Positions 21,001-24,000 of a stretch of 64,000 bases of DNA are shown here, piece after piece. Source of the stretch: Escherichia coli O157:H7. Lineage in GTDB: Bacteria > Pseudomonadota > Gammaproteobacteria > Enterobacterales > Enterobacteriaceae. Location: assembly GCF_013167455.1 (NCBI RefSeq), contig NZ_CP038328.1. One strand, given 5' to 3'. Made by a program: the position numbers. Position 1 is the stretch's first letter. The number at the start of each line of letters is the position of its first letter.

Positions 21001-24000
21001 TGAAAATTGACAGTGCATTATCGTGGGATGCCATTGACGCAATACGAGACTATAGTATTTCTGATATTTATCTTTATCCTGAACAAAAAACAATAAATTG
21101 TGTCGTTGAGATTGAAAACATTGTCTTTGGCGGTTACATTTATACATTGAACAACGGCGTCACATTACAAAACATAGAAAACTCTTTAAAAGATTCTTCA
21201 TGCCATTATGTCTTAAATGGCTATACAGAATTTGTTAACTGTTTGAGACAACTTACTTCAGGAAAGACTGAAAGTGTTCATCGCACCATCAATAAACTGA
21301 ACTATGAGAAATTACCTTTTGGATTTATCATTGCCGCGTTTGCTATACTAAAGATAGCATTTAAAATAAAATTCAGTAAAAATCATGTAAATATCCGAGC
21401 ATTATTAAATGACATCAATTATTTTATGACTTATCAGGGCGAGTCCATTAACCTTATTTCACTGGATCACGAATACCCAGAGTCCTGTCTTCAAAATGAC
21501 ACAAACACATATTTATTAGGAAGAGTAATATTTCTGTATAACTCAATGATTTATAAGTTCATAAACTGTCAGGAACATGAAACCAATAACATTCACTCAG
21601 CTATGATAAATAACCTATTACAGGAAGTTGATATAGCCCTTGGTAAAATAAATGACATTATAGACAGCAGAAACATATCAGCCCCCCATGAACTGGCAAA
21701 TATTCTTACCCGCGAAAAAATACTTACAACACGGGAAAAAAAAGGAAACCTGATAAGCCTGTTTGATGGATTCACTTTATTCCATTGTGTTGGAATGATA
21801 ACCTTTCTTATCCATTATCTCAGAACACCTGAAGAAAAAGTTGAAAATATATTTATGTTATATGGTGCAGATAAAAACAATAAACTACGCAGAAGACTGA
21901 TTTATGACGCACTAGGAATAATTCAGTCTCAGCAGGAGTGAAGAGTTAAACAGGCAAATTATTTTTTATAAAAAGGGGATTGTTAAGTAATCCCCTGTTA
22001 ATCAAAATACGCTTTCCTGACGATCTGATAATTATCAGCTCAATACATTTGACATAAAAGCGGTTTCTTAATTACTACTGCTACGATCACATATCAAATC
22101 ATGATCGTACAATATACATTTTCACTATTATTTATTCACAATTTGAGACATCACATAATCCGCCCATGCCTGCATCATCGGTACACGCTGCTCCAGTAGA
22201 TCAGTACGATGATATGCCGCCTCAACCTTATTTTTCAGCGTATGAGCGAGCGCCCTTTCCGCCAGATCCCGCGAATACCCCTGTTCGCTACACCAGTCCC
22301 TGAATGTTGAGCGAAAACCATGTGCCGTGGCAACTCGCCCCGGAATGTCACTGACGGCTTTCTTTTTACGCAGAAAACTTGTCAACACCATATCGGAAAG
22401 GATCTGCTGCTTTCTGGGTGAAGGGAACACCAGTTCATCATGCAGGCCACGTATATTTTCCAGAATGTAAATAGCCTGCCGGGATAAAGGAACACGATGC
22501 TGTATCCTGGCTTTCATTCTTTCTGCAGGTATAGTCCATACCCGCTTATGAAAATCAATTTCAGCCCAGCGCATTCCCCTGGCTTCGCCCGAGCGAGTTG
22601 CTGTAAGTATCACCATTAATAACAGTGCGCGGGTAACATTATAAGGTTCATCGGTATACACACTGGTCGCCACAAAAAGCGGTAACTGCCTCCAGGGCAT
22701 TGCGGGTTGGTGTTCATCACGTCCTCTTGTCTGCTGAGGAAGCAAATGGTCAACCACATCAACAGGATTTGCTACACAAAAACCGTGCGCCCATCCCCAC
22801 TGCATAACAACATGAATGCGCTGTTTAACCCGGCTTGCCGTTTCTGACAAGGTTAACCAGACTGGACGCAGTGTTTCTGCCACGTCCGCAGCCGTAATCG
22901 AATCCAGCGTTTTTGCTCCCAGTTGAGGAAACGCGTAATTCTCAAGCGTCGATAACCACTGCCTTACATGCTTTGGATTTTCCCATCCAGGAGACAGTTC
23001 TGCATGTACACGCCTGGCTGCATCGGCAAATGTTGGGATAGCGACTTTCTCAGATTCAGCCTTTTTAATCTCCAGAGGATCATCACCTGCAGCAAGTTGC
23101 TCTCGCATTATCCGGGCAGTACGTGCAGCTTCAGCAATACTGACCTCTGGGTAAGTTCCCAATCCAGCATTACGTCTTTTTTGTGTCACCGGACTTACAT
23201 AACGAAAAACCCATTTCCCCCGCCCCTTTACTGAAGAAGGATGAAGGGTCAGTCCGGTAATTCCCCCATGGGGCAATGGTTTGTCATCAGGTTTGATATG
23301 TCTTGCTTTCGTATCCGTCAATACTGCCATACGCTAATTCCCGTCACTCTGGTATGCCATCCAGTATGCCATTAGTCTCTCGCTTCACTAAGAATACATT
23401 AGATAATATCGGACAACAAAAAGTGTAATACATTGTTTATAATGAAATTATATAACACCCCTGGATTAAGTCAGATTTATTTCAGGCGGTCCCCCTCACC
23501 GCCATATTTAAAGAAGAGCTCGTACGAAAGTACGGGCTTTTTTTTCGTATATTGCACACACCGGGTGCCCCCGCCCACGTCTGTTTGGGCGAGGGGAAAT
23601 CGTGCACATCAACTGTCTGGTTGCTCAGTCAACAATCAAAATGCGCAAGAGAGTACAGAACATATATGTATTATCTGGTCACTTCCTATCACTTCCTCAC
23701 TTATTAAAATGCCCCCAACGGAAATACATGTCACATGCCATCATAAAATCGTTATGCCAGAGGAATCGACAATAGAAAAAATAGTAAATTAAGCACGGTA
23801 CATAGCAGAGTAAAAAATAGGCTTCAAACCAAATCCGCCATTCCACAAGCGTTGCCAATACCGACACCAGCGTAATCCACATCACTTCAATAACCAGCAA
23901 TATGAATAACCGAAGCCAAAGCGGCTTGGCAAAAAAGGTCGACAATGCATTTTCACTGGAGAAAAAGAGATCGATTTCCTGCAAAAAAAGCCTGCCCAAA

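Follow-up and report, generated by a model that had tools for sequence, protein, structure and literature searches.

An integrase gene beside a serX remnant in Escherichia coli O157:H7: the probable right-hand end of the OI-48/SpLE1 island

An integrase gene lying next to a fragment of a tRNA gene raises the question of which side of the pair belongs to a mobile element, which to the chromosome, and what the element is. Such an arrangement is found at positions 22128-23545 of the window, by which we mean the whole 64,000 nt stretch of the E. coli O157:H7 contig NZ_CP038328.1 (assembly GCF_013167455.1) that was analysed. The first-pass annotation had proposed an attR-type junction, with an island to the left, the truncated 3' end of a tRNA-Ser gene and its native terminator at the boundary, and a block of accessory genes to the right that would lie outside the integrase-bounded element. 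This reading is borne out, and the junction is very probably the integrase-proximal end (attR, in the orientation of the tRNA) of the OI-48/SpLE1 island of E. coli O157:H7, an integrative element of approximately 86.2 kb inserted into the 3' end of serX.

The boundary itself was located by comparison with E. coli K-12. In a BLAST search against the serX-ycdU region, homology starts exactly at 23491 and continues through ycdU to 25023, at which point K-12 has IS3. The 3' end of the K-12 serX gene reads ...GGTTCGAATCCCCCCCTCACCGCCA, and the DNA after it TATTTAAAGAAGAGCTCGTACGAAAGTACGGGCTTTTTTTT. In the window, the 14 terminal nt of the gene, CCCCCTCACCGCCA, and everything downstream of them are shared with K-12; before 23491, the sequence (...TTTCAGGCGGT) bears no relationship to serX. 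When attB, attL and attR are aligned, they have in common a 14 bp block of identity, with divergence on the expected sides, and the unoccupied related site, represented by the K-12 serX region, corresponds to the two flanks joined at the repeat. The tRNA remnant was originally described as being around 17 nt long (ggtccccctcaccgcca, 23488-23504). Its assignment to the 3' end of a tRNA-Ser gene, namely serX, stands, but only the last 14 nt match: at the corresponding position serX reads ...AATCCCCCCCTCACCGCCA, hence the GGT preceding the core is island sequence. The core occurs just once in the window, even when one mismatch is allowed, and was absent from all of 100 shuffled sequences; that the 64 kb contain no second copy is as expected for an 86 kb island.

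Downstream of the core is the native serX terminator, the G+C-rich stem of which (AGCTCGTAC/GTACGGGCT, with the loop GAAA) spans 23517-23538, with a T8 run at 23538-23545. This call rests on folding, as the consensus terminator scan listed the main hairpin on the minus strand only. The hairpin is as strong as had been claimed, although it begins 12 nt after the CCA, not 11. An identical terminator is present 3' of serX in K-12 and at the serW junction, and it probably also serves the convergent ycdU gene. The serW and serX genes share the tRNA sequence and approximately 45 nt downstream, including the terminator (23505-23548 of the window, compared with the serW junction of O157 strain 350); hence the att core and terminator cannot separate one site from the other, and the two are told apart only by the next gene, which is ycdU at serX and clpA at serW.

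As the sequence ends in ...CACCGCCA and is then followed by a terminator, in the manner of a real tRNA gene, it might be supposed that a complete but divergent tRNA, or a pseudo-tRNA, lies at around 23418-23505, rather than a 3' remnant. However, ARAGORN detected no tRNA in the 64 kb window, Rfam gave no tRNA match at E<=1 between 20000 and 26000, and the DNA upstream of 23491, as well as having no relationship to serX, is conserved island arm. Together with the serX alignment, these searches refute a complete tRNA at this position, in agreement with the first-pass annotation, and leave the idea of a divergent one with practically no credibility.

A further structure straddles the boundary: in the inverted repeat GGCGGT/ACCGCC, the left arm (23485-23490) is island DNA and the right arm is tRNA/chromosomal DNA. 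Judged by position and conservation, the two arms are candidate core-type integrase sites flanking the region of strand exchange, with CCCCCTC as the putative 7 bp exchanged. The same hairpin could instead form part of a small RNA gene at approximately 23449-23553 on the plus strand, an island-chromosome chimera in which GGCGGT-CCCCCTC-ACCGCC is followed by an A/U-rich spacer and the terminator. The two-hairpin fold has a z score of -6.1, its arrangement is similar to that of the 3' module of Hfq-binding RNAs, and there is a weak Rfam match to MicC (RF00121; 37.6 bits, E = 0.006). Nevertheless, this score is far under the gathering score of 90 bits and the match falls mostly on the serX terminator, for which reasons it was rejected along with a similarly substandard match to a Thr-leader; no plus strand promoter was found, and core-type recombinase sites are sufficient to explain the hairpin. 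We consider such a gene very improbable, and attach equally little weight to the related suggestion that the displaced serX fragment is not inert, but could be transcribed from the island arm as a chimeric small RNA existing only while the island is integrated. A recombination site is the reading of this segment that we prefer.

The other end of the element lies outside the window, and its position was inferred from near-identical complete O157 genomes. In NZ_CP022689.1, which has 99.98% identity to the window across 42.8 kb, an intact tRNA-Ser(GGA) serX gene (8213-8300 of the far-end locus, L002) adjoins ghrA and ends in the same 14 nt. Calculated from the coordinates in this genome, the distance between the cores is 86,249 bp, with the intact serX to the left. 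Both the complete tRNA and the second att copy that the first-pass annotation expected beyond the window are therefore found, and the island is delimited by a perfect 14 bp direct repeat with intact serX at one end and the remnant at the other. Non-K-12 sequence (GATTATAAGCGCATG...) directly follows the far-end serX. Immediately after the reconstituted gene is an island-supplied replacement terminator (L002 8301-8345), a hairpin with a T-run that folds with an energy of -17.4 kcal/mol (z = -6.6).

The integrase ORF was found where it had been annotated, and encodes all three domains of a P4-type tyrosine recombinase: arm-binding (Pfam Arm-DNA-bind_3, residues 4-92), core-binding (Phage_int_M, 101-191) and catalytic (Phage_integrase, 232-375). 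Since the motifs TRSGE (245), HGFR (337), LAH (361) and AAYHR (371) are all present, the catalytic Arg, His-x-x-Arg, His and Tyr residues are intact. The protein matches the NCBIfam PRK09692 integrase domain with E = 3.5e-55, although at 187 bits this is under the model's cut-off of 434 bits. It exhibits 98% identity to a 405 aa integrase of Shigella flexneri, relative to which it is five residues shorter and has a different C-terminal tail. The start codon (ATG, 23330) is separated from the core by 160 nt, precisely the interval previously estimated. The gene had also been described as facing the remnant, which is correct for its promoter side; transcription, however, runs away from the remnant. 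The regulatory region of the integrase consequently falls within the arm, in which one promoter-like site was detected. As 1.7 such sites are expected in shuffled sequences, the match is no better than chance, and the assignment of this site as the integrase promoter is only a weak inference.

Table 1. Coordinates of features at and around the island-chromosome junction (positions in the window).
Feature	Position	Strand	Basis
AlpA-family helix-turn-helix gene	18716-19024	-	Pfam Phage_AlpA E = 5.6e-19; PHROG excisionase families
Integrase ORF	22128-23330	-	400 aa, intact P4-type tyrosine integrase
Island-derived arm (P arm), integrase start codon to core; holds integrase upstream region	23331-23490	.	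Absent from K-12
Two GTATGCCAT direct repeats, 12 bp apart	23352-23372	+	Copies at 23352-23360 and 23364-23372
Promoter-like site for integrase gene	23447-23474	-	-35 CTGACT, 16 nt, -10 TATAAT; 10/12 matches
Inverted repeat GGCGGT/ACCGCC around 7 nt CCCCCTC	23485-23503	.	Extends to 15 nt at 73% complementarity, 7 nt spacer
att core, last 14 nt of serX (cryptic ser'X), CCCCCTCACCGCCA; island direct repeat	23491-23504	+	Matches serX; start of K-12 homology
Native serX (and serW) intrinsic terminator	23510-23545	+	Fold -20.4 kcal/mol, z = -6.4
ycdU, first chromosomal gene outside island	23697-24683	-	Annotation, K-12 homology

The arm hardly varies among three independent islands located at serX and serW, and the pair of GTATGCCAT direct repeats, which were correctly noted between the integrase gene and the remnant (Table 1), is invariant in the same comparison. 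These two are the only copies in the window, a count that is not significant by itself (14 of 100 shuffles). A second tandem pair, with the same 12 bp spacing and the same orientation, is found approximately 57 nt beyond the core at the far end (L002 8357 and 8369), a recurrence that would be expected of arm-type integrase sites; there are no further exact copies in the window or in the 16 kb far-end locus. In the reconstructed attP, the pairs are located at -139/-127 and +70/+82 relative to the core, and the predicted circle junction reads ...TTTCAGGCGGT-CCCCCTCACCGCCA-GATTATAAGCGC.... We suggest that the repeats are candidate arm-type sites for the N-terminal domain of the integrase. Statements of the four arm repeats, of the GGCGGT/ACCGCC inverted repeat with its 7 bp spacer or of the island-supplied serX terminator were not found in the accessible literature, and may well be contained in Turner et al. 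2004, which deals with the SRL-island attP; all three are ordinary features of such elements.

The content to the left of the junction conforms to the proposal that the island lies on that side. Leftward of the integrase gene are a gene for a 605 aa hypothetical protein, an IS1, the AlpA-family gene, DUF3987/YfjI genes, a gene resembling inovirus Gp2, several IS elements, traT, a phosphoethanolamine transferase gene and, at a greater distance, the urease cluster. The AlpA-family gene lies 4.3 kb within the island and is, by position and conservation, a candidate excision (directionality) factor. A gene with a frameshift and the annotation 'TOTE conflict system archaeo-eukaryotic primase domain-containing protein' (approximately 12790-15150 on the minus strand; L001 10889-13250) is followed by an inovirus-type Gp2/YagK-like gene and a YfjI-family gene, and this stretch is a P4/CP4-57-like replication-type backbone of the island, partly decayed. 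The gene encoding the 605 aa protein (20124-21941), adjacent to the integrase gene, has a G+C content of 32%, and searches of five libraries gave no match for it; it belongs to a very small family of 34 clusters among 1.84 billion representatives. Its divergent arrangement with alpA-DUF3987-YagK/YfjJ genes is retained in distant relatives with 29-35% identity, hence it looks like a backbone gene of the element family rather than cargo. The protein has a confident, all-helical predicted model (pLDDT 83, pTM 0.84), for which there was no specific structural relative among solved structures.

To the right of the junction are ycdU and, beyond it, genes of the OI-47 type, with a fatty-acid/polyketide-like cluster and a two-partner secretion pair. 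As K-12 homology runs from the core through ycdU, the fatty-acid/polyketide-like block is outside the integrase-bounded element, as was originally suggested. The homology ends within an ACP S-malonyltransferase gene (24680-25624, minus strand), where K-12 has the ymdE pseudogene abutting IS3D (L003 1045-1347); the fatty-acid/polyketide-like block, complete in the OI-47 region of O157, thus appears to survive in K-12 as a truncated remnant. Just 3' of the ycdU stop codon is a tandem TCACTTCCT repeat, with the copies 10 bp apart (23679-23697, plus strand). In K-12 (NC_000913.3; L003 2523-3021, minus strand), serX is followed by three 181 bp tandem repeats that match the Rfam family RtT (RF00391), two of them with 46.3 bits, where the gathering score is 45, and the third below it with 36.1 bits. 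Each carries the 14 bp core and the serX terminator, and hence K-12 has four candidate attB cores. Only one core and no RtT are present in the O157 window, and an RtT-like start comes after the island junction of E. coli Nissle 1917.

The identity of the island follows from its position between ghrA-serX and ycdU, its urease cluster, its IS-rich content and its 14 bp repeat TGGCGGTGAGGGGG, all of which are found in OI-48/SpLE1. The junction is already known, being the published right-hand end of this island; the window contains the right-hand 23.5 kb, with the ter and iha genes lying outside. The 2.8 kb around the junction are 100% identical to many E. coli O157:H7 chromosomes, in which they are annotated as integrase, ycdU, hypothetical protein and ACP S-malonyltransferase. 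The integrase-arm-core module was carried by 1258 of 5426 complete E. coli genomes, and the specific integrase-ycdU junction by 469. The junction forms the right-hand boundary of the island to which O157:H7 owes its urease, its Iha adhesin and the tellurite resistance on which CT-SMAC selective plating is based, and divides OI-48/SpLE1 from the neighbouring, independent OI-47 block. Its importance is mainly a matter of correct annotation; loss of the island via the junction site alters diagnosis and adherence (PMC3064760).

These features can be combined in a model of how the island was acquired and might be lost, in which it is a classic example of an integrase-mediated insertion at a tRNA 3' end. 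A P4-type tyrosine integrase would have recombined the attP of a circular element with the last 14 bp of serX, acting as attB. The far-end copy of serX is intact, owing to the 14 identical bp and the replacement terminator that the island provides; at the end within the window, the displaced original 14 bp and the native terminator have been left beside the integrase gene. The GTATGCCAT pairs, one per arm, may bind the arm-binding domain of the integrase, which could act on the putative core-type sites around CCCCCTC; with its promoter possibly in the arm, integrase binding could also regulate the integrase gene itself. Recombination between the two 14 bp copies, perhaps helped by the AlpA-family protein, would restore serX and release the island.

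Published work supports the outline of this model. OI-43 and OI-48 of strain EDL933 are flanked by perfect 14 bp direct repeats, TGGCGGTGAGGGGG, the reverse complement of the core described here (Bielaszewska et al. 2011, PMC3064760), and these repeats correspond to the 14 bp at the 3' ends of serW and serX, so that intact and cryptic pairs such as serX/ser'X result (PMC3064760). OI-48 was completely excised in 1.97x10^-4 of cells, with EDL933 and Sakai among the strains (PMC3064760). It could be argued that the junction is structurally an att site and yet only a fixed scar, of an element no longer mobilised by its integrase and lost instead through homologous or IS-mediated deletion and the like. 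IS elements are indeed abundant throughout the island, in which internal deletions mediated by them greatly outnumber complete excision (PMC3064760); moreover, a study of Sakai detected no excised circular DNA of any SpLE, whether or not mitomycin C was added (Asadulghani et al. 2009, PMC2669165), and the mobility of the island is therefore low, or its circles short-lived. However, the integrase ORF is uninterrupted and retains every catalytic motif, and the 14 bp repeats are perfect. PCR for excised forms had been proposed in the first-pass annotation, and empty sites have indeed been measured in this way: empty serX sites were amplified from several strains, including EDL933 and Sakai, and the sequence of the restored gene is that of the precise in silico excision product (PMC3064760), whilst the near-identical integrase of the SRL island is required for precise excision from serX (review, PMC7545054). 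A fixed scar hence seems unlikely, though less so than the small RNA considered above, and an att junction of an element that its integrase can still excise remains the reading we favour.

Compared with OI-48 of EDL933 and SpLE1 of Sakai, the locus and sequence are the same: the integrase gene adjoins ser'X and ycdU, the 14 bp repeat is shared, intact serX is next to ghrA (ycdW) and the size is around 86 kb, with nothing of substance to distinguish them. OI-43 is a duplicate of OI-48 at serW, and at serW the arm, core and terminator are identical. Nissle 1917 also has the arm-plus-core module at serX, and O157 strain 350 has it at the serW site, beside clpA. In E. coli WB61 (NZ_CP020025.1, 1767765-1767858), only the last 93 nt or so of the query, comprising island arm and core, are matched (97.9%), with no integrase; this is possibly a decayed remnant of a serX/serW island. 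The Shigella SRL island has the same target (serX, and also serW) and the same 14 bp repeats as OI-48, and the P4-family integrases of OI-43, OI-48 and SRL share 99% nucleotide identity (PMC3064760). Excision of the SRL island is integrase-dependent; its cargo is antibiotic resistance and ferric dicitrate transport, whereas here it is urease, tellurite resistance and iha. More distantly, the satellite phage P4 and CP4-57-type elements have the same integrase architecture of arm-binding, central and catalytic domains, and likewise target the 3' end of a small stable RNA gene, have repeated arm sequences flanking the core, and possess an AlpA-family gene and a DUF3987/YfjI backbone. In CP4-57, the integrase gene lies beside intact ssrA and is read in the same direction. 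By contrast, the integrase gene of the island described here lies beside the displaced remnant and antisense to the tRNA, and the core and arm sequences differ as well.
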